Source: a virus (lineage: Duplodnaviria; Caudoviricetes). From it: a stretch of 31,458 bases of DNA. Numbering within the stretch: position 1 is the first letter of the stretch; every line of letters begins with the position of its first letter. The position numbers and the translations under genes are program-made. The notes below the pieces were generated by a model. That model was not told where the DNA came from. It was given only the letters and a program-made list of their open reading frames with translations, and ran no database searches. Below, in pieces: positions 811 to 17,224 of this stretch. Location: positions 1 to 31,458 of IMG/VR virus record IMGVR_UViG_3300017651_000192; one strand, given 5' to 3'.

Positions 811-995
811 TGACCATCCCGTTCCACGTCCTGCGCGAACAACTGCGGCGCTATGTCCTGCAGTGCGCGACGGACGTGGCACGGGCACAGGCAGCACTCG
901 CTGAGGCCAGGCGGCAATACCAGCAGGCACTAGACGATGAACGTGAGGACGCGATGCAACGCGCGCAGGAGATTATCGAACGGCGGCGACGATGA
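807..995 (+). CDS. hypothetical protein (helical/coiled-coil)
   Basis: Start overlaps the MTase stop and its stop overlaps the next start (ATGA). Confidence 0.6.
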   Translation: MMTIPFHVLREQLRRYVLQCATDVARAQAALAEARRQYQQALDDEREDAMQRAQEIIERRRR

Positions 996-1336
996 CGACG
1001 GCACCTGCCTCACTGATCGCCGCGAGCATGACCGAACGTGAGTTACAGAACAACATCGTTGCGATGGCGCGGACGCTCGGCTGGATGCCGTACCACCCAT
1101 ACGATTCACGCCGCTCGGAACCAGGCTATCCCGACCTGACCATGATTCACGCTGATACCGGGCGGCTGATTTTCGCCGAATTGAAAACGGCGAAAGGGCG
1201 GCTACGCCCGGCACAGATTGAGTGGTTGGGTGCGCTGCGTGAGGTAGCGCGAGATCGTGGGCTGGAGGTCTACGAGTGGCGGCCCTCGGACTGGCTGGAC
1301 GGGACGATTGAGGCGATTCTGCGAGGTGGCCGATGA
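992..1336 (+). CDS. VRR-NUC domain PD-(D/E)XK nuclease (Holliday junction resolvase-like)
   Basis: TERELQ...GYPDL...IFAELKTAKGRLRPAQIEWL matches the phage VRR-NUC pattern. Confidence 0.85.
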   Translation: MTTAPASLIAASMTERELQNNIVAMARTLGWMPYHPYDSRRSEPGYPDLTMIHADTGRLIFAELKTAKGRLRPAQIEWLGALREVARDRGLEVYEWRPSDWLDGTIEAILRGGR

Positions 1337-2205: not shown

Positions 2206-2357
2206 CCCGCACTCCCTACTCAGCACCACCGCGCCGCGTTGACTACTGGACGATGGCATTCGGGATCATCGGCGCACTCGGGCTGGTCGTCGGGCTGGCA
2301 GTGGGGGCGCTGACAGGCTGGATTCTGAAGGCGATAGCGATTGAGAAGGGCTGGTAG
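2202..2357 (+). CDS. small single-pass membrane protein
   Basis: ATGA overlap with the upstream stop; hydrophobic stretch MAFGIIGALGLVVGLAVGALTGWIL. Confidence 0.65.
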   Translation: MTRTPYSAPPRRVDYWTMAFGIIGALGLVVGLAVGALTGWILKAIAIEKGW

Positions 2358-2361
2358 ATCG

Positions 2362-2607
2362 ATGGCAGAAAAATATGGCGTTGACCTCATTGAGGAGATG
2401 GGAGAACCGCGCGTTTCTCGCGGCGCAATGGCTGAGGCAATCCGAATCTCACTCAATCGCCGAGGTCAACCGAGTGAGCGGGACGTGCGGGAAATCCTCG
2501 AAACCCTGCGCTATGACGTTGAACCGGTGTGGCTGGAAACCAACGTCGTGCTGTATGGGGAGATGATCCTGGATTCACTCGATCAGGACGCAGGCGGTGA
2601 CGCATGA
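2362..2607 (+). CDS. hypothetical protein
   Basis: ATG 4 nt after the previous stop; fills the gap and is coupled to the next gene. Confidence 0.6.
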   Translation: MAEKYGVDLIEEMGEPRVSRGAMAEAIRISLNRRGQPSERDVREILETLRYDVEPVWLETNVVLYGEMILDSLDQDAGGDA

Positions 2608-2948
2608 CTGAGTACGTTCGTTTCGCAACGATGGTTGACGGCAACATCCGCCATCACAAAGGCTCTCGCCATAACCGTGTGTACCCGACCGGTTGGATAG
2701 CGGAGCGCATTTGTGATGCAGCCACGCTCGTCACCGGATGCCGCCCGATCACGGCAGAAGATCGTCTTGGCGAAGCCAACGAGCGATACACGCATGTCGT
2801 CCGATGCACATGGTTCGGAGTAGGCATGGACGGGACCGGCATACAGCACGACAACTATTACCTGACGACATTCGACGCGCTGGACATCCTCCGCACGATC
2901 AAGCACGGCGTTGAACAGAGCATCGTGGCGTTAGTCGGTGACGCATGA
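2604..2948 (+). CDS. hypothetical protein
   Basis: GGTGA SD and ATGA coupling at both ends. Confidence 0.7.
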   Translation: MTEYVRFATMVDGNIRHHKGSRHNRVYPTGWIAERICDAATLVTGCRPITAEDRLGEANERYTHVVRCTWFGVGMDGTGIQHDNYYLTTFDALDILRTIKHGVEQSIVALVGDA

Positions 2949-3211
2949 GTAAGCCGCGACGGGTTGGACGCCGGATGATCCGAGAGCGCAACGGCAACAT
3001 GCGGCGGAAGTTCAGACGCGAGGCCGAGCGCGCCCAGTGGTGGGCGGACTTCACCGGCAGTTCATTCCATATCTATCGCGTGCCCTACGGAGTGGTCTAC
3101 CCAGACTCGCCACAACATTACGCCCTCTGCAACGCGAAAGACGCTCCGCACTTTCCCGTCCTGTACTGCGCCATGACCGTGCATCCACAGACAGAGGTGA
3201 CGCATGACTGA
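2945..3211 (+). CDS. hypothetical protein, Arg-rich N-terminus
   Basis: GGTGA SD and coupled start; ends PQTEVTHD. Confidence 0.65.
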   Translation: MSKPRRVGRRMIRERNGNMRRKFRREAERAQWWADFTGSSFHIYRVPYGVVYPDSPQHYALCNAKDAPHFPVLYCAMTVHPQTEVTHD

Positions 3212-3458
3212 CGTGATCCGGATGTCCCATATCGGGCCGGTCGGGATCTATGGCCGGGATCAGCATGGTGTCCATTGGACGACCTTCGAGCACATACAGG
3301 CATCAGAGCATGGATGGGTAGTACGCCCTGATATGCGATGTGACATCTGTGGGTCAGCCATCGGTTCGGGCTACGAGTCGCTCACCGGCGGCGCAAAGTG
3401 GCACGTTTGCGCGACTCACGTGGTGTGGGAACCCCAGGCAGAGGTGACGCATGACTGA
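3204..3458 (+). CDS. hypothetical protein with possible metal-binding motif (CDIC...CATH)
   Basis: GAGGTG SD; ends PQAEVTHD. Confidence 0.65.
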   Translation: MTDVIRMSHIGPVGIYGRDQHGVHWTTFEHIQASEHGWVVRPDMRCDICGSAIGSGYESLTGGAKWHVCATHVVWEPQAEVTHD

Positions 3459-3702
3459 CACGACTGAGATTGCCGAACTACAGCGGCAGATGTTCCGTGA
3501 GCAACGAGACCGGCGCATGTTCTCGCGTCAACTTGCCGTCGCTATCCGGGCGCTCAGGTGGTACGGCGACGAAGACAACTACTATGACCCGCCCGGCGCT
3601 CCCGGTCACCTGGCCGGCGAAGGCATTGATGAGGAACTTGTTCGCGACTACGGCGAGAGGGCGCGTGAGGCGCTGGCCGAGATATACAGGTTGGAATCAT
3701 GA
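3451..3702 (+). CDS. hypothetical protein (shares C-terminal module with next gene)
   Basis: GAGGTG SD; ALRWYGDEDNY...DYGERAREAL. Confidence 0.7.
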   Translation: MTDTTEIAELQRQMFREQRDRRMFSRQLAVAIRALRWYGDEDNYYDPPGAPGHLAGEGIDEELVRDYGERAREALAEIYRLES

Positions 3703-4070
3703 CTGACATCGTGGCTGAGCTGCGGCGGCTGTACGAGGAATCAACAACGGACGGTGACCTCTCGTGGGTTCATGGCGATGTAGTCAACGAACGTGGCTGC
3801 GTGCTGTTTTCCGGTCGGCGATGTATTGAGGTCGGAACCATATTCACGCAAGAGGATGCCGACCTGATCGTCGCCATGCACAACCACCTACCGCAGCTGT
3901 TGGATGCGATCGACACGCTGCGCTGGTACGCGGATAAGAGCAATTACGACGATAACGGCATTTGCCGCACCAAGAGCCGACTCGCACCAGGGGACTATTT
4001 CTGGTGGGAAGACTACGGCGAACGTGCTCGTGCCGCAATCGCGGCGCTGGAACAGGATGGTACCGAGTGA
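3699..4070 (+). CDS. Ead/Ea22-like phage accessory protein
   Basis: ELRRL...DADLIVAMHNHLPQLLDAI resembles the Ead/Ea22-type signature; coupled start. Confidence 0.55.
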   Translation: MTDIVAELRRLYEESTTDGDLSWVHGDVVNERGCVLFSGRRCIEVGTIFTQEDADLIVAMHNHLPQLLDAIDTLRWYADKSNYDDNGICRTKSRLAPGDYFWWEDYGERARAAIAALEQDGTE

Positions 4071-4309
4071 AAGCCACGTTGGACAGTGAAGCGCGATCAG
4101 TTGCATCGGCATTTGTTGACGGGAAGATCGACCATCACTGGCTATTCGACTGGTATCAGGACAAGCCGCGAGAGCGGGAGTACCTGGGGTTCGAGCCGTT
4201 CCGCATCTTCATGGACGTTGACGATGGATACACCACGCTAGAGAAAGAACGGGAACGACTCGCAAAGCGTTTTGGCCTTGGGCGGACGGTGCCTCATGAC
4301 CGCGATTGA
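4067..4309 (+). CDS. hypothetical protein (paralog of 4296-4565)
   Basis: GTGA overlap with the upstream stop; similar to the next ORF. Confidence 0.6.
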   Translation: MKATLDSEARSVASAFVDGKIDHHWLFDWYQDKPREREYLGFEPFRIFMDVDDGYTTLEKERERLAKRFGLGRTVPHDRD

Positions 4310-4565
4310 TGCCGAGGCGCGGGCGGTGATCGGGAGGTTTGTGGCGGGGCAGATCAACGAGAACGCGATTCTCAATTGGCTGACCGCTGAGCGGTGGGAT
4401 GCTGGCGGTGATGAAGTTGAGGACAGTGTATCCGCATGCACTCGGATTCTCTTCGGCGAGTCCACCGTCCGCCGTGAGCGTGAGCGTCTCTCCGCCATCT
4501 ACTTCGGCCCCGACACGGCCCGCTGGCACAGCAACAACGACTGGGACGAGCAGGAGGAACGATGA
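4296..4565 (+). CDS. hypothetical protein (paralog of 4067-4309)
   Basis: MTAIDAEARAVIGRFVAGQIN...RERERL. Confidence 0.65.
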   Translation: MTAIDAEARAVIGRFVAGQINENAILNWLTAERWDAGGDEVEDSVSACTRILFGESTVRRERERLSAIYFGPDTARWHSNNDWDEQEER

Positions 4566-4774
4566 CCCGCCAGACACCCGCTGAGCTGGCCGCAGAGCAG
4601 CGAGCCGAGGTCATCCTCTGGCTGTTGTCGTTGCACCGTCGCACCGACAGGGCGCATGATGAGCATGACCACGAGATGACCGCCAAACTGCATAGATCCC
4701 TGCGCACCACGATGCAGACCATGCAGCAATTCGACGCCAGACGAGCGCAGAAAGGGGGTGATGCGATCACCTAG
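4562..4774 (+). CDS. hypothetical protein
   Basis: GGAGG SD and ATGA overlap. Confidence 0.6.
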   Translation: MTRQTPAELAAEQRAEVILWLLSLHRRTDRAHDEHDHEMTAKLHRSLRTTMQTMQQFDARRAQKGGDAIT

Positions 4775-4824
4775 CCCACGCGACCGACCGTTGGACGTAT
4801 GGACACACGAGGAGAACACCCACA

Positions 4825-5157
4825 ATGCGACGATTCCTGACCGCGCTGATTCTCGGGCTGATGCTCACTGGACTCGTAGCCGTCCCGGCGATGGCGGCAC
4901 CGCCTGACCCGTGCGTGCCGGGCGTGACCGTTTCGACGTTCACCAGTAGCGACACCGGCAACGTCATTCAGGTGACGACCACCACCACCTGTCACGAAGA
5001 CGGGACAGTGGACGACATCAGCTACGAATACGAAACGCTGGCCGTGCGACTGACTGACTCACGGGGCAATAGCCGGTTGGTGCCCGTGGATGAGATCACG
5101 CGACCCGGCCCGTGGCGACCGTGCGGACCACCGCGCGCTGCGGACGTTTGTAACTAG
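4825..5157 (+). CDS. secreted protein with Sec signal peptide
   Basis: GAGGAG SD. MRR + hydrophobic core + AMA|A cleavage-like site; mature part has 4 Cys and is Thr-rich. Confidence 0.7.
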   Translation: MRRFLTALILGLMLTGLVAVPAMAAPPDPCVPGVTVSTFTSSDTGNVIQVTTTTTCHEDGTVDDISYEYETLAVRLTDSRGNSRLVPVDEITRPGPWRPCGPPRAADVCN

Positions 5158-5186
5158 GCCCTGACCGACTGACAGGAGGCTTGACG

Positions 5187-5375
5187 ATGGCAACGGACAC
5201 GAACACTGCGCAGAGCGGTGGGAAGATCGGCGTGATTCTCGGAGGGCAGATGGTCGTGGAATGGCATCCTCGGCCGGTTGCGCCGAAGCACCCGCCGATC
5301 AATCTGCTACTCGCTGACGGCCGTTGTGTCGCGACGTGGCACCCCGGATCAGAAGCGCCGGTAAGCACCGACTGA
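5187..5375 (+). CDS. hypothetical protein
   Basis: AGGAGG SD upstream of the ATG. Confidence 0.55.
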   Translation: MATDTNTAQSGGKIGVILGGQMVVEWHPRPVAPKHPPINLLLADGRCVATWHPGSEAPVSTD

Positions 5376-5385
5376 GATAGCCGAC

Positions 5386-5410
5386 GGGGCAGCGTGATCG
5401 GCGCTGCCCC
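5386..5410 (+). other. intergenic GC-rich hairpin
   Basis: GGGGCAGCG-N7-CGCTGCCCC perfect 9-bp stem with no U-tract. Confidence 0.6.
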
Positions 5411-5428
5411 TGACGACAGGAGGACGTG

Positions 5429-5620
5429 ATGATCGATTGGAATCCGCAGGTCAGGACGGCGCCAGGTCTCATTGCTACGACCACGTACATCGGCAATGGC
5501 TGGTACCACATCAACGTTGAGTCTAGGTCTCTGGTGGAATTCCGAAACCGCATGCGATTTGAGCGCCGCTACGCCCGACAGCGGACGCGCAAGGCGCGGC
5601 GCGTGAGAGAGAGACGATGA
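5429..5620 (+). CDS. hypothetical protein, basic C-terminus
   Basis: AGGAGG SD and ATGA overlap with the next gene. Confidence 0.6.
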   Translation: MIDWNPQVRTAPGLIATTTYIGNGWYHINVESRSLVEFRNRMRFERRYARQRTRKARRVRERR

Positions 5621-5799
5621 TGTCACCAACCGCGTGGGGGATATTCTGGCTCATCATTCTGACGGCCAATGTCGTGGGGATCATCGCGTGTATTGCCCTG
5701 TGCGTCTGGGTTACACGAGTCAGTCGCGAGATTGAGCGGGAGCGGACGCATCAGCCACAGGATCGCGGAACCTACGGGCATCGTGTTGTACGACGCTAG
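5617..5799 (+). CDS. small single-pass membrane protein
   Basis: Hydrophobic AWGIFWLIILTANVVGIIACIALCVWV followed by a charged tail. Confidence 0.65.
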   Translation: MMSPTAWGIFWLIILTANVVGIIACIALCVWVTRVSREIERERTHQPQDRGTYGHRVVRR

Positions 5800-5819
5800 C
5801 TAACACAGAAGGAGCGCAC

Positions 5820-6044
5820 ATGAGCAAGCGACTACGGATTGAGTCAGACGGCACTCCGAGGGGAGCACGGGTTCTGATTGACGGCCAGTTGGTGGAGCAC
5901 GTAGTAGCGGCCACCGTCGAGATATGCCCGGATCAGATCACGGCGACGATCACCGTGCTCAACCCCGAACTGGCGATTGACATCAACGACACTGAATTGG
6001 CGATCCCGATAACGTCGATGGACTTCAGGACGCGAACCCGCTAA
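5820..6044 (+). CDS. hypothetical protein (beta-rich)
   Basis: AAGGAG SD; LRIESDGT...VLIDGQ. Confidence 0.7.
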   Translation: MSKRLRIESDGTPRGARVLIDGQLVEHVVAATVEICPDQITATITVLNPELAIDINDTELAIPITSMDFRTRTR

Positions 6045-6094
6045 CCAACACCCTACGCTCAGTGTGGCCGGCGCTGAGCCATCGAGGAGGATGC

Positions 6095-6334
6095 ATGACT
6101 GCGGAGAGCGCAGCACGCAACGCCGGTCAACCCATACAGCCGTATCTCGTCATCTGTCGAGACTGTGGCGATGCCGTCGCAGTCAGAATGGCCAGCGGCC
6201 GGATCGTCCCCCTCGGCGAGGTTGAGGTGACCGAGGATCGTCGTATTGTTGTCGTCTGCCCCGTCTGCGGTCGCGACAACCGGATTGGCAACACCCGCGC
6301 AGTTGACAGAATGCGCAGAGAGCGGCGACAATAG
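6095..6334 (+). CDS. small Cys4 zinc-ribbon protein, candidate late-gene regulator
   Basis: GAGGAGG SD; CRDC...CPVC; last gene before terS. Confidence 0.7.
   Translation: MTAESAARNAGQPIQPYLVICRDCGDAVAVRMASGRIVPLGEVEVTEDRRIVVVCPVCGRDNRIGNTRAVDRMRRERRQ
6303..6332 (+). promoter_or_regulatory. putative sigma70-type promoter for packaging operon
   Basis: TTGACA (6303-6308) - 18 nt - GACAAT (6327-6332); same geometry as 11573-11602. Confidence 0.6.
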
Positions 6335-6351
6335 CGGTGAATCGAATATGT

Positions 6352-6403
6352 CGGAGGCAGTGCCCCGTCCCCCGGTGAATTCCGGGCGCGGGGTGTTTTT
6401 GTT
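6352..6403 (+). terminator. leader copy 1: 17-nt box + terminator-like hairpin before terS
   Basis: CGGAGGCAGTGCCCCGT, outer stem GCCCCG/CGGGGT, inner stem CCCGG/CCGGG, then TTTTTGTT. Confidence 0.7.
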
Positions 6404-6411
6404 GGGAATCA

Positions 6412-6837
6412 ATGGCAACACGCGCACAGACAGCACAACATAAAAAAGCGTTTCTCGAGGCGTTCCGTGTGCTTGGCAATGTCTCGGCTGCCTGTCGCGA
6501 TACCAGCGTTGACCGGCGAGATGTCTATCGCTGGAAAGAGAACGATGCCAAGTTCCTGGCGGCGTTTACAGATGCTGAGATCGAATCGACCGAACTCATG
6601 GAGCGCGAGGCGTACCGGCGGGCAGTTGAGGGTGTCCAGAAGCCGGTGTACAGTCGCGATGGCACGCTCATCGACACGGTGTACGACTACTCCGACACTC
6701 TGTTGATGTTCCTGCTGAAAGCTCGTGCGCCGCAGCGATTCCGCGAACGCTATGACCACCAGCACACGGGGGCGAACGGAGCTCCGCTGACCTTCACGTT
6801 GCTCATCGGTGATGACGATGACGGCGACGACGAATAG
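6412..6837 (+). CDS. terS: terminase small subunit
   Basis: N-terminal HTH (GNVSAACR...VYRW), EAYRRAVEG, YSDTLLMFLLKA; directly upstream of TerL. Confidence 0.85.
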   Translation: MATRAQTAQHKKAFLEAFRVLGNVSAACRDTSVDRRDVYRWKENDAKFLAAFTDAEIESTELMEREAYRRAVEGVQKPVYSRDGTLIDTVYDYSDTLLMFLLKARAPQRFRERYDHQHTGANGAPLTFTLLIGDDDDGDDE

Positions 6838-8029
6838 CCCCAGCGTCGGCTACCGTCGCCCGTGGCTCTACGATGCGCAGCGTGCGGCCATCTTCGCGCC
6901 GGAACGCTATAGCGTCATTGAGGCATCAACGAAAGCCGGGAAGACCGTTGGCTGCATGGTCTGGTTGGCTGAGCAGGCGATGATCGACGGTCGGACGGGC
7001 CGCAACTACTGGTGGGTCGCACCGATCTATAGCCAGGCGAAAATAGCGTTTCGCCGCCTCAAGCGGGCCATCCCGCGCCAGCTCTACGTAGCGAACGAAT
7101 CCGAGTTGACCATCACTCTGGCGAACGGCGCCGTGCTGTGGTTCAAGGGCGCGGAGAATCCCGATAGCCTCTACGGCGAGGACGTGTACGCTGCGGTGAT
7201 TGACGAGGCCACGCGCGTCAAGGAGGGCGCGTGGCACGCCGTCCGATCGACACTGACCGCCACACGTGGGCCGCTGCGCATCATCGGCAACGTCAAGGGC
7301 CGGAAAAATTGGGCTTACAACCTCGCCCGCCGTGCTGAGTCGGGCGAGCCGGACATGCACTATGCCAAACTGACCGCCTACGACGCGGTGCAGGCCGGCG
7401 TGCTGGACGAGCGCGAGATCGATGACGCCCGTCGCACGCTGCCGGACGCCGTGTTCAGGGAGCTCTATCTCGCCGAACCGTCTGATGACGAGGGCAACCC
7501 GTTCGACATGCGCGCGGTGCGGGACTGCATCGCGCCACTCTCGATTGCCGCGCCGGACGCCTACGGTTGGGATTTGGCGAAGAGCATCGACTGGACGGTT
7601 GGAATCGCGCTCGACCGCTCCGGCGCGACGTGTCGTTTCGATCGGTTCCAGGCACCGTGGCAGGTGACGATTGAACGCATCCGGCAGGCGACCGGCAAGA
7701 CTCCTGCGTTGGTGGACTCGACCGGCGTCGGTGACCCCGTGCTCGAGGCGCTCCAGGAACGGTCTATCAACTACGCCGGCTTCAAGTTCACTGCACCGTC
7801 GAAACAACAACTCATGGAGGGCTTGGCCGTGGCTATCCAGCGGCGTGAGATACGGTTCCCATCCGGGCCGATCGTCAATGAGCTCGAGACGTTCGAGTAC
7901 CAGTACACGCGCACGGGCGTGCGTTACGCAGCACCGGATGGCCTGCATGACGACTGTGTGATGGCGCTCGGCCTGGCCGTCTGGCATCGCCAGCATCGAC
8001 CTAGCCGCGGCCTCGTGAGTTGGAGCTGA
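6818..8029 (+). CDS. terL: terminase large subunit
   Basis: Walker A ASTKAGKT, Walker B AVIDEA, RNase H-like GWDLAKSIDWT and HDDCVMAL. Start could be 6809, 6812 or 6818. Confidence 0.95.
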   Translation: MTATTNSPSVGYRRPWLYDAQRAAIFAPERYSVIEASTKAGKTVGCMVWLAEQAMIDGRTGRNYWWVAPIYSQAKIAFRRLKRAIPRQLYVANESELTITLANGAVLWFKGAENPDSLYGEDVYAAVIDEATRVKEGAWHAVRSTLTATRGPLRIIGNVKGRKNWAYNLARRAESGEPDMHYAKLTAYDAVQAGVLDEREIDDARRTLPDAVFRELYLAEPSDDEGNPFDMRAVRDCIAPLSIAAPDAYGWDLAKSIDWTVGIALDRSGATCRFDRFQAPWQVTIERIRQATGKTPALVDSTGVGDPVLEALQERSINYAGFKFTAPSKQQLMEGLAVAIQRREIRFPSGPIVNELETFEYQYTRTGVRYAAPDGLHDDCVMALGLAVWHRQHRPSRGLVSWS

Positions 8030-8030
8030 G

Positions 8031-9341
8031 ATGGACCCTACGACCGCTGATATCATCGGGCAGGCACTCGCCGACCTGAAACGCCGCGCCCCTGTCTACA
8101 CGCTGTATCGCGACTACTACGACGGCGACCACCGCCTGACGTTCGCGACCCGCAAATTCTCCAACGCGTTCGGCAATCTGTTCGCCGCGTTTGCCGACAA
8201 CCTGAGCAGCACCGTCGTCGATGCCGCTGCCGACCGGCTGACACTGACTGGATTCGTGCGCGATTCGGGCGGCTCTGGCGCAGTTGCCGAGGCAATGAAT
8301 CTATGGCGGCGTAACCGCATGGATCGGCGGGCTGGCGAGGCACATACCGAGGCGCTGCTAACCGGCGACAGCTACCTGATTGTCTGGCCCAATGCTGAGG
8401 GCAAGGCCGTCATCCAGCCGCAGAAGGCCCACAACGTCACCGTCGGATATGACGACGAGAATCCCGGCCGGATTATCTGGGCCGTCAAAATCTGGCGCGT
8501 TCGCAAGCAGTGGCGATTGAATCTCTATCTGCCGGATCGTGTTGAGAAATGGGCGACGCCGGAGTCGAGCCAGTCCAGCGAGATGCCCGACAGAGCCAGC
8601 GCGTTTCAGGAGTATGAGATTGTGGGCGAGGCGTGGCCGTTGCCAAACCCCTACGGCGTTGTGCCGGTGTTCCATATGGCGAACAATGCGGGCGTCGGCG
8701 AGTTTGGCCGCTCGGAGCTGCGCGACGTTATTCCGCTACAGGACGCGCTCAACAAGAGCATCGCCGACATGCTGGTCGCGCAGGAGTTCGTGGCGCTGCC
8801 CCAGCGGATTATCACGGGCTGGGAGCCAGAGATTGACCCTGACACCGGCCAGCCGCGCAGCCTGCCGTCGAGTGTCGAGCGATGGACGGCGTTCGCTGAC
8901 GCGGGCGTCAACGTTACGCAGTTGGCAGGTGCTGACCTGACGCAGTTCCATTCGACGCAGGACGGATTTCGACGTGAGATTGCCGGAGTGAGCCGGACAC
9001 CCGCGCATTTCCTCGTGCCAACGACCGGCGACTGGCCGAGCGGCGAGGCGCTCAAAACGGCTGAATCGCAGTTCATCGCGAAGCTCCAGGATCGGCAGGT
9101 CGCGTTCGGCAACGTCTGGGAGGATGCGATCCGGTTTGCGCTGGTGATCGAAAACGTGACGGTTGAGGACCTGTCGGCAGTCTGGACCGACCCGACGCCA
9201 CGGTCGGAGAACGACATGGTGCAGCGCGTCAAGACGCACGTCGACGCGGGCGCGGCCTACGGCGGCGCACTGCGGCTCGTGGGATTCAGCGACGATCAGG
9301 TGAAAATGGCGACGGATTTTAGCGATACACCGGAGATGTAG
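8031..9341 (+). CDS. portal protein (SPP1 gp6-like)
   Basis: Follows TerL; YYDGDH, GRSEL..VIPLQDALNK, PQRIITG, SGEALK. Confidence 0.92.
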   Translation: MDPTTADIIGQALADLKRRAPVYTLYRDYYDGDHRLTFATRKFSNAFGNLFAAFADNLSSTVVDAAADRLTLTGFVRDSGGSGAVAEAMNLWRRNRMDRRAGEAHTEALLTGDSYLIVWPNAEGKAVIQPQKAHNVTVGYDDENPGRIIWAVKIWRVRKQWRLNLYLPDRVEKWATPESSQSSEMPDRASAFQEYEIVGEAWPLPNPYGVVPVFHMANNAGVGEFGRSELRDVIPLQDALNKSIADMLVAQEFVALPQRIITGWEPEIDPDTGQPRSLPSSVERWTAFADAGVNVTQLAGADLTQFHSTQDGFRREIAGVSRTPAHFLVPTTGDWPSGEALKTAESQFIAKLQDRQVAFGNVWEDAIRFALVIENVTVEDLSAVWTDPTPRSENDMVQRVKTHVDAGAAYGGALRLVGFSDDQVKMATDFSDTPEM

Positions 9342-9343
9342 CG

Positions 9344-9673
9344 GTGGACGATCTGCCCGAACTGACGCTAGCCATGATCCCCGAGGCGCGGGCATTCTGG
9401 GATGCTCATGTCCGTCGTGCTGACCGTGGGCTACTGGACACGCCACAGCCGGACGAACGCCGCGTTGAACGGGCGCTGGATGAGGTGTTGCGTCGTGCCG
9501 AGGCTGAGGCCGATGGGTGGGCCACGAGTCTGGCAGGCGGTGGCATGACGCTGGATGACTACGGGCTACGGATGCTGCACATGATCGCGATGACGCGCCT
9601 GTGTGCCATCGCGGCAGGGCGTGGCGGCTGGCAGCACATCACGGCAGGCGATCTGGCAGAGGAGAACGCCTGA
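9344..9673 (+). CDS. minor head/morphogenesis protein, N-terminal part
   Basis: Position after portal; LAGGGMTLDDY...AAGRGGW; TGATG-coupled to the next ORF. Confidence 0.55.
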   Translation: MDDLPELTLAMIPEARAFWDAHVRRADRGLLDTPQPDERRVERALDEVLRRAEAEADGWATSLAGGGMTLDDYGLRMLHMIAMTRLCAIAAGRGGWQHITAGDLAEENA

Positions 9674-9999
9674 TGGCGATGTCGTTTCGTGAGCAGACGG
9701 GCTTCCTCCAGCGGTTCATGGAACAGACGGCCAGTGGCGTGCAGCGTGTCGACGGGCGATTCCGGCAGCGTGCCAAGCAATACATCCGGGCGGCGAAGGC
9801 GCTGTTTGTCGAGACGAAGCGCAAGGTGAAGCGGCTCGTTGGCACGACGGAAGAGCGCCGCGTACTCGGCAACGCCGAACATTGCCCGGAGTGCATCGAG
9901 TACGCAGCGCGTGGTTGGGTGCCGGTTGGGACACTGCCGGTGCCTGGGGAGCAATCGAGCTGCCGGCAGAACTGCAAATGCCGCATGGAGTGGCGCTAG
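9673..9999 (+). CDS. MuF/SPP1 gp7-like minor head protein, C-terminal part
   Basis: GAGGAG SD; HCPEC...GW...LPVPG...CRQNCKC terminal motif. Confidence 0.7.
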   Translation: MAMSFREQTGFLQRFMEQTASGVQRVDGRFRQRAKQYIRAAKALFVETKRKVKRLVGTTEERRVLGNAEHCPECIEYAARGWVPVGTLPVPGEQSSCRQNCKCRMEWR

Positions 10000-10316
10000 G
10001 CCTCAGGCGGCTGCGCATTCCGCAGTATCCGATACCGCACTTCGTCGTCTTCCTGCATGACCGCAGCGGCCAGCCGGTCGAACCGTGAGCGCCAGTCAGG
10101 CGGCGTGTTCTCACCGTCTTTCGGTTCCCACTGGACGCAGCCATACATCGCGTTGGTGACGAGTTCTGCGCGGTACGATTCCCAATCCGTGGCATATGCG
10201 AGGGGTGGCGGGTCTATGATAGGCCTGCCGTCGGATGAGATGGTGAGTTCACACGCGCCCTGCTCAGGATCGTTGTCGAACTGTGCCCACCACTTGCACG
10301 TCTTGCAGTGATTCAT
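9996..10316 (-). CDS. Cys-rich hypothetical protein
   Basis: CKTCKWW...C...YGCVQW; GGAG SD; its stop overlaps the convergent gene's stop (CTAG). Confidence 0.7.
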   Translation of the reverse strand: MNHCKTCKWWAQFDNDPEQGACELTISSDGRPIIDPPPLAYATDWESYRAELVTNAMYGCVQWEPKDGENTPPDWRSRFDRLAAAVMQEDDEVRYRILRNAQPPEA

Positions 10317-10319
10317 CGT

Positions 10320-10763
10320 CTACTCCGACCGTTGGCTATCGGCGATCAACTCCTCCGGGTCTACACCTAACGCTGTTGCTAGTTTTCTGATCGTGCTGAT
10401 ACGCGGCTGATACGACCGCAGGGTGCCGTTAACCACGTCGTGATCCGCAACGCTCAGGTGGGAATACAACGCAGGCCACGGGTTGTAGAGTGGCATGCCG
10501 ACAGTGATCGCGTCTCTGGTCAGGCAGTATTCAGCGATCGCCATCTCTGCTCGCGTCTTCGTTGGCTCAACCACCGCAAAGACGAACGCGCCCTCTCCAA
10601 ACCGGCTCCAGTCATCGCGAAGTCGATGGTTCGTTGCGGACTTCCATCCGCCATTAAGGCTTTCACGATGCTGTCTCCATCGGCGTTCGATGTTCGTTGA
10701 GCCGCCGATGTACACGCGCCCCGTCACGCTATTCCTGATCGCGTAGACGCCGATCGTCGGCAT
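10320..10763 (-). CDS. GIY-YIG endonuclease with C-terminal XRE/Cro-like HTH fragment
   Basis: GVYAIRN...VYIG.S.NIERRW..H, later E and YN; C-terminal PRISTIRKLATALGVDPEEL; GGAGGTG SD before the ATG at 10763. Confidence 0.85.
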   Translation of the reverse strand: MPTIGVYAIRNSVTGRVYIGGSTNIERRWRQHRESLNGGWKSATNHRLRDDWSRFGEGAFVFAVVEPTKTRAEMAIAEYCLTRDAITVGMPLYNPWPALYSHLSVADHDVVNGTLRSYQPRISTIRKLATALGVDPEELIADSQRSE

Positions 10764-10938
10764 CGCCACCTCCTTCCACAAACGCTTGCACATCCTCGGG
10801 CCGTATGCGCCAGCCAGCACGTCGGCTAATTCGCGTGCCATTCAACCTCCCCGCCCGTAGCCAGTCACGAACCGTCTCGGGATGCACCTGTAACTGCTCT
10901 GCGACCTGTTTGACGGTCAACCATCGTTGTTCGCTCAT
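10729..10938 (-). CDS. excisionase-family (MerR-like/HTH_17) DNA-binding protein
   Basis: WLTVKQVAEQLQVHPETVRDWLRAGRL...WRIRPEDV; AGGAG SD. Confidence 0.9.
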   Translation of the reverse strand: MSEQRWLTVKQVAEQLQVHPETVRDWLRAGRLNGTRISRRAGWRIRPEDVQAFVEGGGDADDRRLRDQE

Positions 10939-10962
10939 GCGTCTCCTATCCATGCAATACAT

Positions 10963-11020
10963 AGCATATCACTGTGTTTGATGCTTGACTATCATGTATA
11001 TCACTGTATAATACTGTATA
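10963..11020. promoter_or_regulatory. AT-rich divergent promoter region with direct repeats
   Basis: Rightward TTGACT (10985-10990) - 16 nt - TATAAT (11007-11012). Leftward extended -10 TGATATGCT (10971-10963). TGTATA occurs three times at 10-bp period. Confidence 0.75.
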
Positions 11021-11055
11021 GAGAGTAACGCTAACACAGAACGGGAGAGGGCACG

Positions 11056-11355
11056 ATGACACGAGAGCAGTTGCAGGCGAACACCGAGGTCGCGAAGCAA
11101 CACATCGTTGTACGTGGCAATGGCGAGTGGGTTGTCCCGAGCCGTCGGCAGATCGGGCAGGTCTACATCGTGGCGCGGCGCAAGGGGCAGATGACCTGCA
11201 ACTGCGAGGCGGCGCTGCGCGGCATCCAGTGCTGGCACATCGCGGCCGTCAACGAGCGGTTCGCAGCGCCGGAGCCAGAGGAATCGCCGGAGATGGCCGA
11301 GACGCGGCGGCAGATGATGAACCTGTTGCGCGGCAAACCACAGTTTAGCGCGTAG
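11056..11355 (+). CDS. SWIM zinc-finger protein
   Basis: V.S...Y.V...CNC...CWHIAAV (CxC...CxH). Confidence 0.85.
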   Translation: MTREQLQANTEVAKQHIVVRGNGEWVVPSRRQIGQVYIVARRKGQMTCNCEAALRGIQCWHIAAVNERFAAPEPEESPEMAETRRQMMNLLRGKPQFSA

Positions 11356-11363
11356 AGGGAATG

Positions 11364-11389
11364 ACGGGGCGGCGATTGTGCCGCCCCGT
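11364..11389 (+). terminator. intergenic hairpin (terminator-like or processing site)
   Basis: ACGGGGCGGC-N6-GCCGCCCCGT perfect 10-bp stem; weak U-tract. Confidence 0.55.
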
Positions 11390-11408
11390 TCTGATAGGGA
11401 GGCACGGC

Positions 11409-11576
11409 ATGAAGAAACTGGCGATTGACTACAGCGACATGACCGCCGACGATCTGGCCGAGATGGAGTACAACGACCTGCCACCGCAGCGGGAACGCAT
11501 GGCGCAGCACGAGCGTGAGGCGGCGCTGGCAGAGCTGGCGGAATTGTTCGGCGAGATGCCGGAGCAGCCTGATTGA
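11409..11576 (+). CDS. small acidic hypothetical protein
   Basis: GGGAGG SD; 55 aa, D/E-rich. Confidence 0.65.
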   Translation: MKKLAIDYSDMTADDLAEMEYNDLPPQRERMAQHEREAALAELAELFGEMPEQPD

Positions 11577-11602
11577 CGTAACGCCCACTCATCGGCTAGA
11601 CT
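11573..11602 (+). promoter_or_regulatory. putative sigma70-type promoter for capsid/tail operon
   Basis: TTGACG (11573-11578) - 18 nt - TAGACT (11597-11602). Confidence 0.65.
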
Positions 11603-11622
11603 GACAGCACAACCAGATAGTG

Positions 11623-11677
11623 CGGAGGCAGTGCCCCGTTGATGACCGGAAACGGTCGTCGCGGGGCACTTTCGTTT
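11623..11677 (+). terminator. leader copy 2: 17-nt box + terminator-like hairpin before scaffold gene
   Basis: CGGAGGCAGTGCCCCGT, outer stem AGTGCCCCG/CGGGGCACT, inner stem GATGACCG-GAAA-CGGTCGTC, then TTTCGTTT. Confidence 0.75.
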
Positions 11678-11689
11678 GCGAGGAATCGA

Positions 11690-12220
11690 ATGGCAGACGA
11701 TCCACAGGTCGACGCGACCCAGGCGGACGCCGAGACCACGCCCCAGGCGGGCACCGAATCCCAGCAGCAGCCGGAGACGACCCAGGCGGACGCTCCGACG
11801 AACGACGGCGGGCTGAGCCGCGAAGAAGCGCGCAAGCTGCGCAACGAAGCCAGCAGTCTGCGAAAGCGGCTCAAGGACCTTGAGGACGCGCAACTCTCGG
11901 AGTCCGAGAAGCTCAAGCGGGACTTCGAAGCGACCACCGCGGAGCGCGATGAACTGCGCCAGACGCTGCGCTCAATGCGTGCCGAGGCTGCCGCGCGTGA
12001 CGCCGGTGCCGTCTATCCCGACCTCGTTGCTGGCCGTATCGATCCCGAGGCGATCGACGATCCGAAGGCGCTGTCTCGCGCGATGACCGATCTGAAAGCG
12101 CAATACCCGTCGCTGTTCAGGAGCCAGAACGGCTCAGTGGACGCCGGGGCTCGCGGTGACGTTGTCGCTACTCGTGACATGAACCAGTTGATCCGACGGG
12201 CGGCCGGGCACAGCGTCTAG
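11690..12220 (+). CDS. capsid scaffolding protein
   Basis: GAGGA SD; acidic low-complexity N-terminus, coiled coil (KLRNEA...LEDAQLSESEKL), C-terminal DMNQLIRRAAG; precedes the major capsid gene. Confidence 0.85.
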   Translation: MADDPQVDATQADAETTPQAGTESQQQPETTQADAPTNDGGLSREEARKLRNEASSLRKRLKDLEDAQLSESEKLKRDFEATTAERDELRQTLRSMRAEAAARDAGAVYPDLVAGRIDPEAIDDPKALSRAMTDLKAQYPSLFRSQNGSVDAGARGDVVATRDMNQLIRRAAGHSV

Positions 12221-12246
12221 GCCGCTGAAACGAAACGGAACCCGAC

Positions 12247-13191
12247 ATGCCCTATAACTCATTGATTAGCCGTGCCGACGCGGCGGCGATGATTCCGGAG
12301 CAGGTGTCCAACGCCATGCTCGGCAATCTGTCCAACACCAGTGCCGCGCTGGCCACATTCACCCGCATTCCGGTCGCACGCAATCAGGTGCGTTTCCCCG
12401 TCCTGTCTGCGCTGCCAACGGCCTATTTCGTCACTCCGACAGATACCGGTCTCAAGCAAACGACCGAGGCAGCATGGTCGAACGCCTACCTCAACATTGA
12501 GGAGCTGGCCGCTATCGTCCCGATCCCCGAAGCCGTCCTCGACGATGCTGGCTACGACGTGTTCGGGGCCATCCAGCCGCTGCTGGAACAGGCCATTGGC
12601 CGCGCCCTTGATGCCGCTGTGTTTTTCGGCACGAACGCGCCCTCGTCGTGGCCGACCAACGTCGTGGCTGCCGCTGTCGCGGCTGGCAACGTCGTTGCAC
12701 GCGGCGCTAACGCCGTATCTGAGGGTGGCTACACCGGCGATATCTCGGATTTGTTCGCGACACTGGAAGAAGACGGATACAACCCGAACGCCATCATTGC
12801 GAACACAACTGTGCGTGCGTTCCTGCGGAACAATCGCGCGACCGACGGCCAGATGCTCCAGGAGGTTTCGACCGCGCAGGCGTTCGGTGTGCCGGTGACG
12901 TATCCGATGGCGGGCCAGTGGCCGAGTGGCACGAGTGTGGCTGAGGCCATCGCGATGCAGCGTGAGAATTTCGTGATCGGTGTCCGGCAGGACATCACGT
13001 ACAAGATCATCACCGAGGGTGTTATCACCGACAACACCGGGGCGATTATCTACAACCTCCCACAGCAGGACATGGTCGCGCTGCGCGTCGTGTTCCGTGT
13101 GGGGTGGCAGGTCTCCAACCCGATCAACTACCAGCAGGTCACCGAGGGTAGCCGTTACCCGGCGGCAGTCCTGCGAACTCCGGCCACCTAG
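12247..13191 (+). CDS. major capsid protein (HK97 fold)
   Basis: IPEQVS, EELAAIVPIPEAVLDD, ALDAAVFFG, QQDMVALRV; size and position fit. Confidence 0.92.
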   Translation: MPYNSLISRADAAAMIPEQVSNAMLGNLSNTSAALATFTRIPVARNQVRFPVLSALPTAYFVTPTDTGLKQTTEAAWSNAYLNIEELAAIVPIPEAVLDDAGYDVFGAIQPLLEQAIGRALDAAVFFGTNAPSSWPTNVVAAAVAAGNVVARGANAVSEGGYTGDISDLFATLEEDGYNPNAIIANTTVRAFLRNNRATDGQMLQEVSTAQAFGVPVTYPMAGQWPSGTSVAEAIAMQRENFVIGVRQDITYKIITEGVITDNTGAIIYNLPQQDMVALRVVFRVGWQVSNPINYQQVTEGSRYPAAVLRTPAT

Positions 13192-13193
13192 TG

Positions 13194-13397
13194 ATGACCG
13201 AGGAGGAACGCGCGGCGCTCTACCGTAGCCAGCAGGCGCAGATGGCACGCCAACGCGCGACCATTGAGCGGGGGCTGGCCGGCAATGCCGCCGCGCGTGC
13301 CGCCCTCGATGACGACTATGAGCCGATTGTCCAGTGGCTCGCAGAAAGGAACTCGACCGATGACGGAGAAAAAGGCTCCCGCATCCTCGCGAACTGA
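13194..13397 (+). CDS. hypothetical protein
   Basis: ATG 2 nt after the capsid stop; overlaps the next ORF by 38 nt. Confidence 0.5.
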   Translation: MTEEERAALYRSQQAQMARQRATIERGLAGNAAARAALDDDYEPIVQWLAERNSTDDGEKGSRILAN

Positions 13398-13539
13398 CGA
13401 CGTCGGGCATTCCGAGGTGCAGTCGGCGTTCGACGAGGCCAACGAAAAGGGCTATTTCGGCACCGTGCCGGACGAGCGGCCCAATGAGGACTACACGCTA
13501 GCCGGTTCTGTTCGGCGGGCGAAGGAGGAACGGAAGTGA
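13360..13539 (+). CDS. small head-associated hypothetical protein
   Basis: AAAGGA SD; EVQ...EKGYFG.VPD..PNEDYT.AG; GTGA overlap with the next gene. Confidence 0.65.
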   Translation: MTEKKAPASSRTDDVGHSEVQSAFDEANEKGYFGTVPDERPNEDYTLAGSVRRAKEERK

Positions 13540-13949
13540 GCGGACAAGCGCCACTGACGAAGACCTATAGCGTCATCATTCCGGGTGCGGCTGCCAATGC
13601 CGATTTCGTCGCCACCATCTGTGCGGCGGAGTTTGCTGGCACGCTGACCGAGGCGTTCTACATCGCGGACACGGCCATCACCGGTGCGAACACGGAGAGC
13701 CGAACGCTCAACATCCTGAACCAGGGCACCGATGGCGCGACCGGCGACGCGGTGACGATGGCAACGACGGCGTTTGTCTCCGGCACCAACGCAGCGCAGT
13801 ACCACCGTACCGATCTGGCGCTCTCCAGTACTGCGGCGAACCTCGACGTAGAGGTCGGCGATGTCCTGACCGTCCAGTCGCTGCACGTTGGCACGACCGG
13901 GCTGGCCGATCCGGGCGGCACCGTGTTCGTTACGCTGAGCCGGGCATAG
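13536..13949 (+). CDS. putative capsid decoration/cement protein
   Basis: A/T/G-rich beta protein downstream of the capsid gene; GGAGG SD. Confidence 0.6.
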   Translation: MSGQAPLTKTYSVIIPGAAANADFVATICAAEFAGTLTEAFYIADTAITGANTESRTLNILNQGTDGATGDAVTMATTAFVSGTNAAQYHRTDLALSSTAANLDVEVGDVLTVQSLHVGTTGLADPGGTVFVTLSRA

Positions 13950-13953
13950 TCCG

Positions 13954-14304
13954 ATGACCGAGGAGCAGGCGCTGGCTCGATTGCAGGCTATGGTCGCCTA
14001 CGATGCCGACCCGGCGCTAGACACCGATGAAATGGACATGCTCCTCGATGTAGCGCGGCGAGCAGACGCAGACGGGCTGGCACCGAGTGACACGGGCTGG
14101 GCTCCGACGTGGGATCTCAACGCCGCGGCAGCCGAGGGCTGGCGCTGGAAAGCCGCGAAAGTGGCGAACCGCTACAACGTCGCGACGGACGGCCAGTCGC
14201 TCAGTCGCTCCGATCTGATTGCACACTGCGAACGCATGGTCAGTCAATATCAGCGCCGCATTGCTAGCAGCGTACCGATGCGGGGCGCGTGGACGGAGGC
14301 ATAG
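13954..14304 (+). CDS. head-tail adaptor
   Basis: WDLNAAAAEGWRWKAA...DGQSLSRS; position fits. Confidence 0.75.
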   Translation: MTEEQALARLQAMVAYDADPALDTDEMDMLLDVARRADADGLAPSDTGWAPTWDLNAAAAEGWRWKAAKVANRYNVATDGQSLSRSDLIAHCERMVSQYQRRIASSVPMRGAWTEA

Positions 14305-14493
14305 ATGCCACAGTGGGTGTATTTCGCGGACCATTCCGAGGCGGTCCGGCTGGATCATTACCGACGCCACGAGGACGAATACAAGGACCGGCTGATCGCC
14401 TACATCCTCGATACCCGGACCGGCGAACGCAGTCCAGAACTGCCGAAGCCGCGCACCAAACGGCCATCGGAGCAGGCCAGTGATACCGAGTAG
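14305..14493 (+). CDS. hypothetical protein
   Basis: GGAGG SD; abuts the upstream stop. Confidence 0.55.
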   Translation: MPQWVYFADHSEAVRLDHYRRHEDEYKDRLIAYILDTRTGERSPELPKPRTKRPSEQASDTE

Positions 14494-14830
14494 CGAACTG
14501 GCACTCCTCCGCGCCGATCTCACCGGCGTCCTCGCTGACTCCTGCGCGGTCGTGCGGGTGACGCGGACGCAGACCGACTCGGGCGGCTGGACGGAGGCGA
14601 CAACGACGCAATCTGCGCAACCGTGCCGTGTGGGGCCACTGAGCGGGCGTGAGCGCATCGCAGGCGGCAAGATCGCCGAGGAGTCTGATCTGGTCATGAC
14701 GCTGAAATACGACGCGGATATCCGCAGTGATGACCGCGTTACACACGGCGGCAAAACGTACGAGGTTGTGTCGATTGATGACCGCACCGACCGGCTGGTT
14801 CGGCGGGTGTACGTGAGGAGAACGGGATGA
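14480..14830 (+). CDS. head closure/stopper protein (SPP1 gp16-like)
   Basis: TDSGGW...LSGRE...DIRSDDRV...TYEVVSI. Confidence 0.8.
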   Translation: MIPSSELALLRADLTGVLADSCAVVRVTRTQTDSGGWTEATTTQSAQPCRVGPLSGRERIAGGKIAEESDLVMTLKYDADIRSDDRVTHGGKTYEVVSIDDRTDRLVRRVYVRRTG

Positions 14831-14949
14831 GCGCGTTCCTGCACACGTTCAGCGCGTTTGACATCATCGTCCTCGCCATGTCGTTGACATCTATAGCCAT
14901 GACACTCAACCAGATGCGCCGACGCAGGCGCGCAGAACGGACGGGTTAG
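14827..14949 (+). CDS. 40-aa membrane micro-protein (below ORF-track cutoff)
   Basis: GAGGAG SD and ATGA overlap; MSAFLHTFSAFDIIVLAMSLTSIAMTLNQMRRRRRAERTG. Confidence 0.6.
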   Translation: MSAFLHTFSAFDIIVLAMSLTSIAMTLNQMRRRRRAERTG

Positions 14950-14952
14950 CAG

Positions 14953-15144
14953 ATGCCACGGAGCGCAGCACTCGAAATCAGCGTACTGGATATCGAGCCG
15001 GTGATGGCGGTCGTTGAGACTGCCAGTGTCGTGCTACAGGTGCTGTCAGAGCAGAGCTCCATCAGCGCCGATACCGATGCAGCGGTGGCGTTGCAGGACG
15101 CGATGGACGGGCTGCTGGATCATCTGCGGGAAGGCGGCGAGTAG
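14953..15144 (+). CDS. hypothetical protein
   Basis: Fills the gap with 2-3 nt spacing on each side. Confidence 0.55.
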   Translation: MPRSAALEISVLDIEPVMAVVETASVVLQVLSEQSSISADTDAAVALQDAMDGLLDHLREGGE

Positions 15145-15146
15145 AG

Positions 15147-15479
15147 ATGGCTATTCGGGTTCGCATTAGTAACAACCGGCTGCCTGACATCGCGCGGCAA
15201 CTTCCTATCGCGCGTCGCACCATTGTGGCTCGCCGTGGCGCAGAGATGCGTGACATCGCAGCCCGACTGAGCCGAGTAGATACCGGCGAGATGCGGGAAG
15301 GCTGGGAGTTTCGCGAGACAAACCAGGGCGGCGTCTTGGAGAATCAGGTGCCGCACACCGTCTTCAATGAGTACGGCACCGTGAAGATGACTGCGCAACC
15401 GATGGCACGACCAGCCGCCGAGCAGACATTCCCCAAGATCATCGAAGACTTCGAGAACTTGGAGGGTTTGCTGCGATGA
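15147..15479 (+). CDS. HK97 gp10-family neck/tail completion protein
   Basis: VDTGEMREGW...EYGTVKMTAQPMARPA. Confidence 0.88.
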   Translation: MAIRVRISNNRLPDIARQLPIARRTIVARRGAEMRDIAARLSRVDTGEMREGWEFRETNQGGVLENQVPHTVFNEYGTVKMTAQPMARPAAEQTFPKIIEDFENLEGLLR

Positions 15480-15919
15480 CCGCGTTCGAGCCATTCATCG
15501 CCAAACGCTACGTGCGATCACGGCTGATCCAGTCTGCAACACTGGCCGGGCTGATCGGCACGAGCGTCTACGCCGATGTGGCACCGAGCGGCTCCGCTGC
15601 GCTGTACGTCCTGATGACCGTCGTGAGTGCTGAGGATCTCATGGTCGTTGGCGCTGATCGTGTCTGGTCGAATGTCCTGATGCAGGTCGAGGCATGGGGA
15701 CGGACGGCAGACGACGCGGTGGTGGCACAGGTCGCGGCAGCCATTGATGGCGCGCTCCACGACACCAACGGTGCCATGACCGGCGTTGATTACGGGAAGG
15801 GCATCGTGTTCAGCAGCACGCGAGAGCGCGCACTGAATCTGCCGCCCGAGGTTGACGGTGACGTTATCTGGCGTCGTGCAGGCGGCGAGTACCGCCTGAA
15901 GGTGCAGGCCAGCGCATGA
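15476..15919 (+). CDS. tail terminator protein
   Basis: LIGTSVY...P...YV...QVEAW; located between the gp10-like gene and the tail tube gene. Confidence 0.78.
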   Translation: MTAFEPFIAKRYVRSRLIQSATLAGLIGTSVYADVAPSGSAALYVLMTVVSAEDLMVVGADRVWSNVLMQVEAWGRTADDAVVAQVAAAIDGALHDTNGAMTGVDYGKGIVFSSTRERALNLPPEVDGDVIWRRAGGEYRLKVQASA

Positions 15920-16050
15920 CCGAGCGTGAGTTTCTCGACAAGCTGACACGCCTGATTACGGCGCAGATTCGATTGTTCGAGCAGATGACGAACCGACCGT
16001 TCGGTTTCGTCGTCCACATCACCCGCAAGGGTGACGGCCACGGGGCATAG
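15916..16050 (+). CDS. 44-aa hypothetical protein (below ORF-track cutoff)
   Basis: ATGA overlap; MTEREFLDKLTRLITAQIRLFEQMTNRPFGFVVHITRKGDGHGA. Confidence 0.5.
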   Translation: MTEREFLDKLTRLITAQIRLFEQMTNRPFGFVVHITRKGDGHGA

Positions 16051-16147
16051 GGCGCCCCTACGCTGCGCAGACTCCACCCAGAACGAGCCACGCCGATTCG
16101 CTCCGGCCACGCTCACAGCAGTTATCCACTGATTGTGAGGTGTCCTC

Positions 16148-17158: not shown

Positions 17159-17169
17159 ATCGCGTGTTC

Positions 17170-17195
17170 ACCGGCGGCTGACTGTGGTCGCCGGT
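17170..17195 (+). terminator. hairpin after tail tube gene
   Basis: ACCGGCGGCT-N6-GGTCGCCGGT (two G-U pairs); weak U-tract. Confidence 0.45.
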
Positions 17196-17224
17196 TCTCC
17201 CCATACCCGAGAGGACAGAACGCA

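Follow-up and report, generated by a model that had tools for sequence, protein, structure and literature searches.

In the sugar operons controlled by BglG, LicT or SacY, a protein stabilizes a small hairpin, the ribonucleic antiterminator (RAT), which shares sequence with the 5' arm of an intrinsic terminator, and in phage lambda the gene for the late regulator Q immediately precedes the late promoter. In many environmental phages, no late regulator of the Q, RinA, ArpU, Ogr or sigma-like type can be recognized, which leaves the timing of their virion genes to be explained. Other described factors act on related signals in different ways: Q, AlpA and GafZ load via DNA between the -35 and -10 elements (available part of PMC11150451), NusA binds the spacer 3' of boxA in lambda nut and in ribosomal RNA (rrn) operons (available part of PMC2724277), and Com of phage Mu binds a short RNA hairpin beside an inhibitory one, with a bipartite target motif, GAG(N)2CC / CC(N)2-3GAG, that SELEX located in the hairpin loop (available part of PMC6483171). 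Here we describe a duplicated leader in a 31,458-nt stretch of tailed-phage DNA (IMG/VR record IMGVR_UViG_3300017651_000192, hereafter the window) that precedes both the packaging and the capsid genes and lies beside a gene for a small zinc ribbon.

Each leader runs, on the plus strand, from a promoter-like site through a 17-nt box and a predicted terminator into the first gene of an operon. Leader 1 begins with TTGACA (6303-6308), 18 nt and GACAAT (6327-6332), a 10/12 promoter match spanning 6303-6332, carries the box at 6352-6368, 19 nt 3' of GACAAT, and ends ahead of terS (6412-6837, ATG at 6412; PHROG 4044, E 3e-34), which opens the terS-terL-portal operon. In leader 2, the promoter-like site at 11573-11602 (TTGACG 11573-11578, 18 nt, TAGACT 11597-11602; 9/12 match) is followed 20 nt 3' of TAGACT by the second box at 11623-11639, identical to the first in every letter, and then by the head scaffold gene (11690-12220, ATG at 11690; PHROG 194, E 1e-7; PF06810, E 1e-8), which heads the capsid/tail/lysis block with the major capsid gene next in line. 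This common layout and the identical 17-mer, both reported by a first-pass annotation made from the sequence alone, can be read directly at the two sites. The 17-mer has exactly two matches in the window at up to 3 mismatches, both perfect (shuffle mean 0.26), and the one other exact 17-mer repeat in the window is a ribosome-binding/gene-junction repeat at 3192 and 3439. Both leader promoters are among 5 sigma-70-like sites in positions 1-20000, against a shuffle mean of 4.7, so the promoter match alone means little. A box scan and a covariance model found no third leader copy ahead of tail or lysis genes in the window, and in a comparison between sequencing runs none of the differences listed (40 of 569) falls in the boxes, which cannot prove conservation. 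The GGAGG within the box was considered as a ribosome-binding site and ruled out, with no usable start after it in copy 1. The duplicated leader is a real feature of this phage.

We read the leaders, with a probability of roughly 55%, as a protein-gated terminator/antiterminator switch for late genes in which the zinc ribbon would be the RNA-binding factor. Underlying this reading are the duplicated layout, the ribbon gene beside copy 1 and the pairing of a ribbon with such leaders in two related phages. Transcription by the host polymerase would begin at both sigma-70-like promoters and, if the ribbon does not intervene, end some 65 nt later at the predicted terminator. As the transcript emerges, the box is predicted to fold first and sequester the 5' arm of the terminator, and to be displaced once the 3' arm has been made. 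By analogy with Mu Com and its short hairpin, we infer that the ribbon, made early from the upstream block, binds the box hairpin as RNA and holds it. An A/C-rich element near the transcription start might in addition recruit NusA as the lambda nut and rrn spacers do, a weaker part of the proposal. One early-made protein would in this way open both late operons together.

Folding of both leaders gives long bulged hairpins whose inner stems differ in sequence. Predicted terminator 1 (6359-6403) consists of a 5' arm at 6359-6368, an inner stem at 6371-6386, a 3' arm at 6388-6397 and a U-tract at 6396-6403; in predicted terminator 2 (11630-11677) these parts lie at 11630-11639, 11641-11660 (with a GAAA loop), 11661-11670 and 11670-11677. 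The annotation was thus right that the 3' half of the 17-mer forms the 5' arm of a bulged hairpin and that the inner stems pair in both leaders despite their different sequences. Each prediction has the form of an intrinsic terminator, a GC-rich hairpin directly followed by a U-rich, if imperfect, tract. The fold z-scores of leaders 1 and 2 are -2.2 and -7.5 when trimmed and -0.9 and -5.7 with 5' flank; taken alone, the fold of leader 1 is a modest gain over chance. A simple terminator scanner called neither full bulged hairpin, just a partial stem at 6379-6394.

The box is also predicted to pair with itself into a hairpin of 6 bp with an A bulge (CGG-A-GGC, AGU loop, GCC-CCG; -7.1 kcal/mol), the 3' strand of which doubles as the 5' arm of the terminator. 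We followed the pairing probability of this hairpin while folding transcripts of increasing length. For copy 1 it stays at 0.98-0.99 until the 3' arm of the terminator is included and then falls to 0, and for copy 2 it is 0.85-0.99 before the 3' arm and 0 after. Over these two and both copies of a related phage, L186, the range is 0.85-1.0 up to the inclusion of the 3' arm and 0 from there on, and the single copy of another relative, L203, switches in the same way but dips to 0.23 at one intermediate length. Mutual exclusion of small hairpin and terminator, as in a RAT, is therefore predicted in all five copies, with controls that are moderately discriminating: random genomic 8-mers in place of the 5' half of the box fold equally well in 2.6%, 2.5%, 8.4%, 0.8% and 2.8% of trials for the five copies. 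With the box hairpin imposed, the complete window leaders are 8.7 and 13.3 kcal/mol less stable, which would make termination the default; once the hairpin is held, only the inner stem is predicted to be left, about 10 nt from the U-tract. A design of three strands (box 5' half, shared arm and 3' arm) would account for the whole 17-mer being kept while the inner stems drift. The annotation had proposed a terminator overridden through a box conserved in sequence; the override is still the best reading, but the box is not purely a sequence element and is predicted to add a hairpin of its own that competes with the terminator.

The candidate trans factor is encoded at 6095-6334 on the plus strand, with the 3' end of its gene overlapping promoter 1. 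It is a 79-residue protein with a short C4 zinc ribbon (CxxC-x30-CxxC, followed three residues on by N, in keeping with the CxxC-x(n)-CxxC pattern of Com), and its AlphaFold2 (AF2) model, built from 6 sequences (pLDDT 74.8), is a beta ribbon with an all-beta core and a C-terminal helix. Sequence searches with the ribbon returned one further cluster of homologues, one viral locus from these searches was dismissed as spurious, and among 401 Chloroflexota genomes there was no homologue. Its profile aligns with a profile of Com-like proteins over 33 columns at 81% probability (E 1.2e-5) with a 15-residue insertion, and when 185 short CxxC-CxxC open reading frames (ORFs) were scored, Com-like proteins made up 6 of the 9 top scores outside the training set. 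An ESM Atlas search yielded unnamed clusters only, with the Com cluster under the threshold. Because the ribbon lies below the Com family cut-off and the box lacks the motif of Com, we treat the pair as a divergent variant: a distantly Com-like protein that may work like Com and yet not be classed as Com.

A regulator gene directly upstream of a late promoter is also the arrangement of lambda Q. The ribbon, or another factor, could bind DNA between -35 and -10, load onto polymerase and pass the leader terminator, with the box as no more than a shared part of pause or terminator; we consider this unlikely, though it is the alternative that we rank highest. Window promoters 1 and 2 and the L203 promoter have spacers that begin alike (AAYGC-CA), and the sites of Q, AlpA and GafZ lie in just this interval (available part of PMC11150451). 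However, the two promoters of L186 have no common spacer motif while the box is common to both of its leaders, the longest conserved element is a transcribed box that folds against the terminator, and the AF2 model of the ribbon has no predicted helix-turn-helix.

Capsid and TerL searches gave 131 loci that were examined for the box, and the single match in leader context was L203, a phage with a TerL 77% identical to that of the window. An orthologous ribbon (46% identity) lies at the same place in L203, followed by the same promoter geometry and a terminator; its box has 2 changes, one in the loop and one from C-G to U-G, that keep the hairpin. Between this leader and an intact terS, a short ORF at 1530-1660 resembles the N-terminus of terS, which suggests that the packaging gene was replaced behind a kept leader. 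When short ribbons with a hairpin and U-tract behind them were sought, 14 sites including the window came up, and one of them, L186 (portal 46% and capsid 53% identical), carries a similar long-loop ribbon with two leaders, one ahead of the gene upstream of terL and one ahead of scaffold. These leaders have a box of their own, with 16 of 17 letters common to the two copies. Two of the ten terminator pairs (box columns 11 and 12), C-G throughout the three copies of window type, are reversed to G-C in the two of L186, and relative to window copy 2 two more pairs (columns 8 and 9) are compensated. RNAalifold on an automatic alignment reported double changes at 6 of 21 pairs with L186 off by one base, and we therefore counted pairs by script. 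Searching related phages, as the annotation had advised, thus recovered the leader with its ribbon in L203 and L186. Its idea of a box conserved in sequence holds within the window; across phages, the 3' half changes together with the 3' arm of the terminator, and GG-N-GGC alone is common to the window and L186.

Elemental pauses follow a pattern with GG ten to eleven bases ahead of a C-G step, and the box fits it. As a DNA pause signal of the RfaH/ops type, with a small hairpin possible in the non-template strand, the box might recruit a NusG paralogue, but this is very improbable: no NusG-like gene was found among the 50 window ORFs scanned against PHROGs (the record being a fragment), and the covariation in the 3' half of the box is that of an RNA stem.

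Com-like ribbons occur in similar surroundings. In L202 (TerL 77%), one lies at the same position and is followed by tandem repeats, a hairpin, a U-tract and terS, and in L232, L393, L530 and L583 the ribbon gene ends at a promoter with a terminator leader next and then head genes; all five combine a Com-like ribbon with a hairpin and U-tract ahead of head or tail genes. The L232 and L202 ribbons match PF10122, the Com family, weakly (E 8e-5 and 1e-3). Across the 401 Chloroflexota genomes, such a context surrounds 3 of the 6 PF10122 matches listed (the best 6 of 7), two of them near copies. In a phage of lower GC content, L424 (about 9870-10000), a small zinc-ribbon gene, a near-consensus promoter, a hairpin and a U-tract precede terS, and L392 and L404 have the leader with no ribbon detected.

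The resemblance to Com brings in translational control as for Mu mom, with the leader read through and the ribbon remodeling the long hairpin so that the ribosome-binding sites of terS and scaffold become accessible. This is the only role shown for Com in the available part of PMC6483171, the hairpins end 10-20 nt ahead of the start codons, and the U-tracts are weak. Against it, Shine-Dalgarno-like sequences are mostly unpaired in the predicted folds, each of the five copies has a U-tract after its stem, and in the Com-linked look-alikes G405-G407 the start codon comes well past the hairpin, so that we find it improbable and place it third among the alternatives. In place of this leader, many capsid relatives (L123-L126, L132, L135, L145, L149 and L177) have paired small hairpins with GCAC-type loops (CCGCACGG) directly ahead of the scaffold start codon, a possible translational operator.

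A number of findings weigh against the proposed switch. On the protein side, the profile scores of Com-like proteins are low (9-16 bits) and any two zinc ribbons can align; the ribbon matches neither PF10122 (at E≤1 or at 0.05) nor any PHROG (Com being PHROG 13819 and 6417), and a Foldseek search of its model against viral models gave nothing under E 0.001. Neither the two window boxes nor the two L186 leaders contain the GAG(N)2CC motif, of which the L203 leader has one single half-site. On the RNA side, the 5' half of the box, when shuffled, still folds equally well in 12-21% of trials (window and L203), and among 15 other terminators with the same core, which the search pattern itself imposed, 5 form a mini hairpin of -5.4 or better and 1 has one better than that of the window. 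The U-rich tracts reported by the annotation are present after both hairpins but imperfect (TTTTTGTT, TTTCGTTT). As to distribution, the 20-kb record of L203 has one leader copy only, and G406 has a long-loop ribbon and a terminator leader without the box of the window. No new member came from a search of 200 loci (2.45 Mb) with a covariance model of the leader (best new E 0.11). The specific family amounts to three phages of two lineages, and its covariation may therefore go back to a single inherited event. Since a promoter with U-tract was found at 5 of 80 terS loci and most relatives lack the layout, the leader is a module of some lineages.

Scans for the exact box added no independent case. 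In viral contigs there was 1 match, in coding sequence and attributable to chance; in genome contigs at least 120 (about 410 estimated), none of those listed with both promoter and hairpin; and in metagenomes at least 117 (about 500 estimated), with a promoter at only 2 of the matches listed. These two (L303/L304) are the same phage, identical to the window over 6041/6041 and 6043/6043 bases, and are not independent. A portal search gave 3 loci, all distant. A pattern of box plus stem had 16 viral matches, of which 1 is real (L203) and 15 were rejected as ordinary or unplaced terminators. GCCCCG/CGGGGC stems are indeed common in ordinary terminators, and this, together with 15 of 16 viral matches not being this leader, would suit a leader that works with no trans factor, i.e., a leaky, NusA-tuned attenuator or an insulator copied within each phage that sets late expression or blocks read-through. 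The imperfect U-tracts fit such an attenuator, and an 11/12 promoter at 10985-11012 pointing into leader 2 fits an insulator. Still, a terminator directly 3' of its own promoter would, with no switch to override it, damp the most highly expressed operons, the box is kept between the copies of one phage while the inner stems differ, and ribbon and leader occur together across phages. We judge a factor-free leader improbable and rank it second, behind loading through promoter DNA.

The part of the switch proposal that concerns NusA comes from a match in leader 2. There, ACAACCAGATAG at 11609-11620 (+) scores highest of all positions on either strand of the window against a matrix of the 3' 12 letters of boxA built from 18 distinct sites in 30 Chloroflexota 16S leaders, a phylum that is uncertain for the host: 1 of 73 terS homologues is named Chloroflexota, and TerL matched 2 of the 401 Chloroflexota genomes at about 60%, the locus of one (G175) being without the leader. 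The counterpart near predicted start 1 (6339-6349, +) is a weak look-alike that 9% of background windows equal and that is not significant alone. An A/C-rich stretch directly follows the predicted start in several leaders. It counts against the proposal that 6 of 14 leaders score under 5% of background with the match strong just in leader 2, and that the A/C-rich motif had been noticed in the leaders before the matrix was built. As for a boxA core for NusB-NusE, the CCTT part of the Chloroflexota rrn sites is absent from both leaders. A viral scan for promoter plus element gave at least 103 distinct sites from the 120 matches listed (about 270 estimated), 27 with hairpin and U-tract and 3 with an upstream ribbon. 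With such sites numerous and few of them next to a ribbon, the element is common at phage promoters and not specific to the switch. An rrn-spacer-like ACAACYGAAT follows hundreds of phage promoters (L510-L629), some of them ahead of tRNA clusters and head operons, and might serve phages in general as a start signal that recruits NusA. We regard a NusA site in the leaders as a lead.

Several neighboring features were recorded alongside. A 142-kb metagenome contig (L303/L304) opens with sequence identical to the window, which suggests that the phage is a prophage. Between the portal block and scaffold, a divergent cassette at 10320-11355 comprises a GIY-YIG and helix-turn-helix gene on the minus strand (10320-10841) and a gene with a SWIM zinc finger (11056-11355). 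Between these two genes lies the promoter at 10985-11012, accompanied by a repeated ATATCACTGT. Contigs from two other sequencing runs skip or replace 10005-11016, making this a variable insert. A 13-21-nt repeat, GAGGTGACGCATGACTGA, at 2596, 2936, 3192-3212 and 3439-3459 marks the junctions of several small early genes and combines, in 3-4 copies, a Shine-Dalgarno sequence with an overlapping stop/start. In the intergenic gap 3' of the head-closure gene, TTGACATC occurs twice in direct orientation, 26 nt apart (14857-14892), with no matching -10 at normal spacing, possibly as an operator. The last, incomplete tail-type ORF contains periodic repeats of 42 nt (14 codons) at 30750-31259.

Searches for a described counterpart came back negative. 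Rfam 15 has no match in the window at gathering score, in line with the annotation's failure to recognize a named RNA family (best E 1.9 and 4.3 for the leaders and 0.08 for 11 related loci). Neither a BglG/LicT-family protein among the scanned window ORFs nor a RAT match in Rfam was found. Open-licence full text contained no report of late-gene antitermination by Com-like or zinc-ribbon proteins or of these motifs, although supplementary motif tables of comparative RNA screens could hold one. If the switch is real, a 79-residue zinc ribbon and a 65-nt leader would be a compact solution to late-gene timing, accessible via gene synthesis, and the role of Com-like proteins would extend beyond translational activation of mom, the only one known for them. 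The window and L186, which differ in boxes and ribbons, suit a cross-swap for protein-RNA specificity, and their ribbon-box pairs, if orthogonal, would be useful as transcription switches.

Compared with known systems, the leaders follow the RNA logic of the RAT elements of BglG, LicT and SacY, with a conserved small hairpin that is predicted to share a strand with the terminator and would be stabilized by a protein. They differ in RNA sequence, in lacking a factor with CAT/PRD domains and in serving phage late genes rather than sugar operons. With lambda Q, AlpA and GafZ they share a constitutive-looking promoter, a short leader and a terminator ahead of late or particle genes, with the regulator gene directly upstream, but those factors load via DNA (available part of PMC11150451), whereas the conserved element here is transcribed and duplicated before two operons. 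The order of a candidate spacer-like element and then a predicted small hairpin, close to where the transcript begins, recalls lambda N/nut and rrn, and leader 2 resembles the part 3' of boxA where NusA binds in the rrn signal (available part of PMC2724277). Unlike nut and rrn, the leaders have no boxA core and no arginine-rich N-type protein, and unlike lambda N/nut the hairpin overlaps the terminator and belongs to late rather than early operons. The protein resembles Com of phage Mu (PF10122), a small CxxC-CxxC ribbon likewise encoded beside its likely target, in which a short hairpin overlaps or abuts a larger inhibitory one. Here, however, about 15 more residues separate the knuckles of the ribbon, PF10122 is not matched, the box lacks GAG(N)2CC repeats, and the target is a predicted terminator ahead of packaging and capsid operons, while that of Com is a translation block on mom. 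A bolder reading, which we hold only tentatively and think doubtful as a whole, is that a divergent long-loop Com-like branch was rewired to a new hairpin code as master late-gene antiterminator, that a minimal nut-like unit (a host NusA spacer taken from rRNA operons, a phage-specific hairpin and an overlapping terminator) was duplicated ahead of each virion operon, and that ribbon and box co-evolve as phage-specific pairs. To the known systems, this locus adds a branch of divergent ribbons whose hairpin box is not that of Com, a further phage in which the box differs, and a lead toward the rrn spacer.

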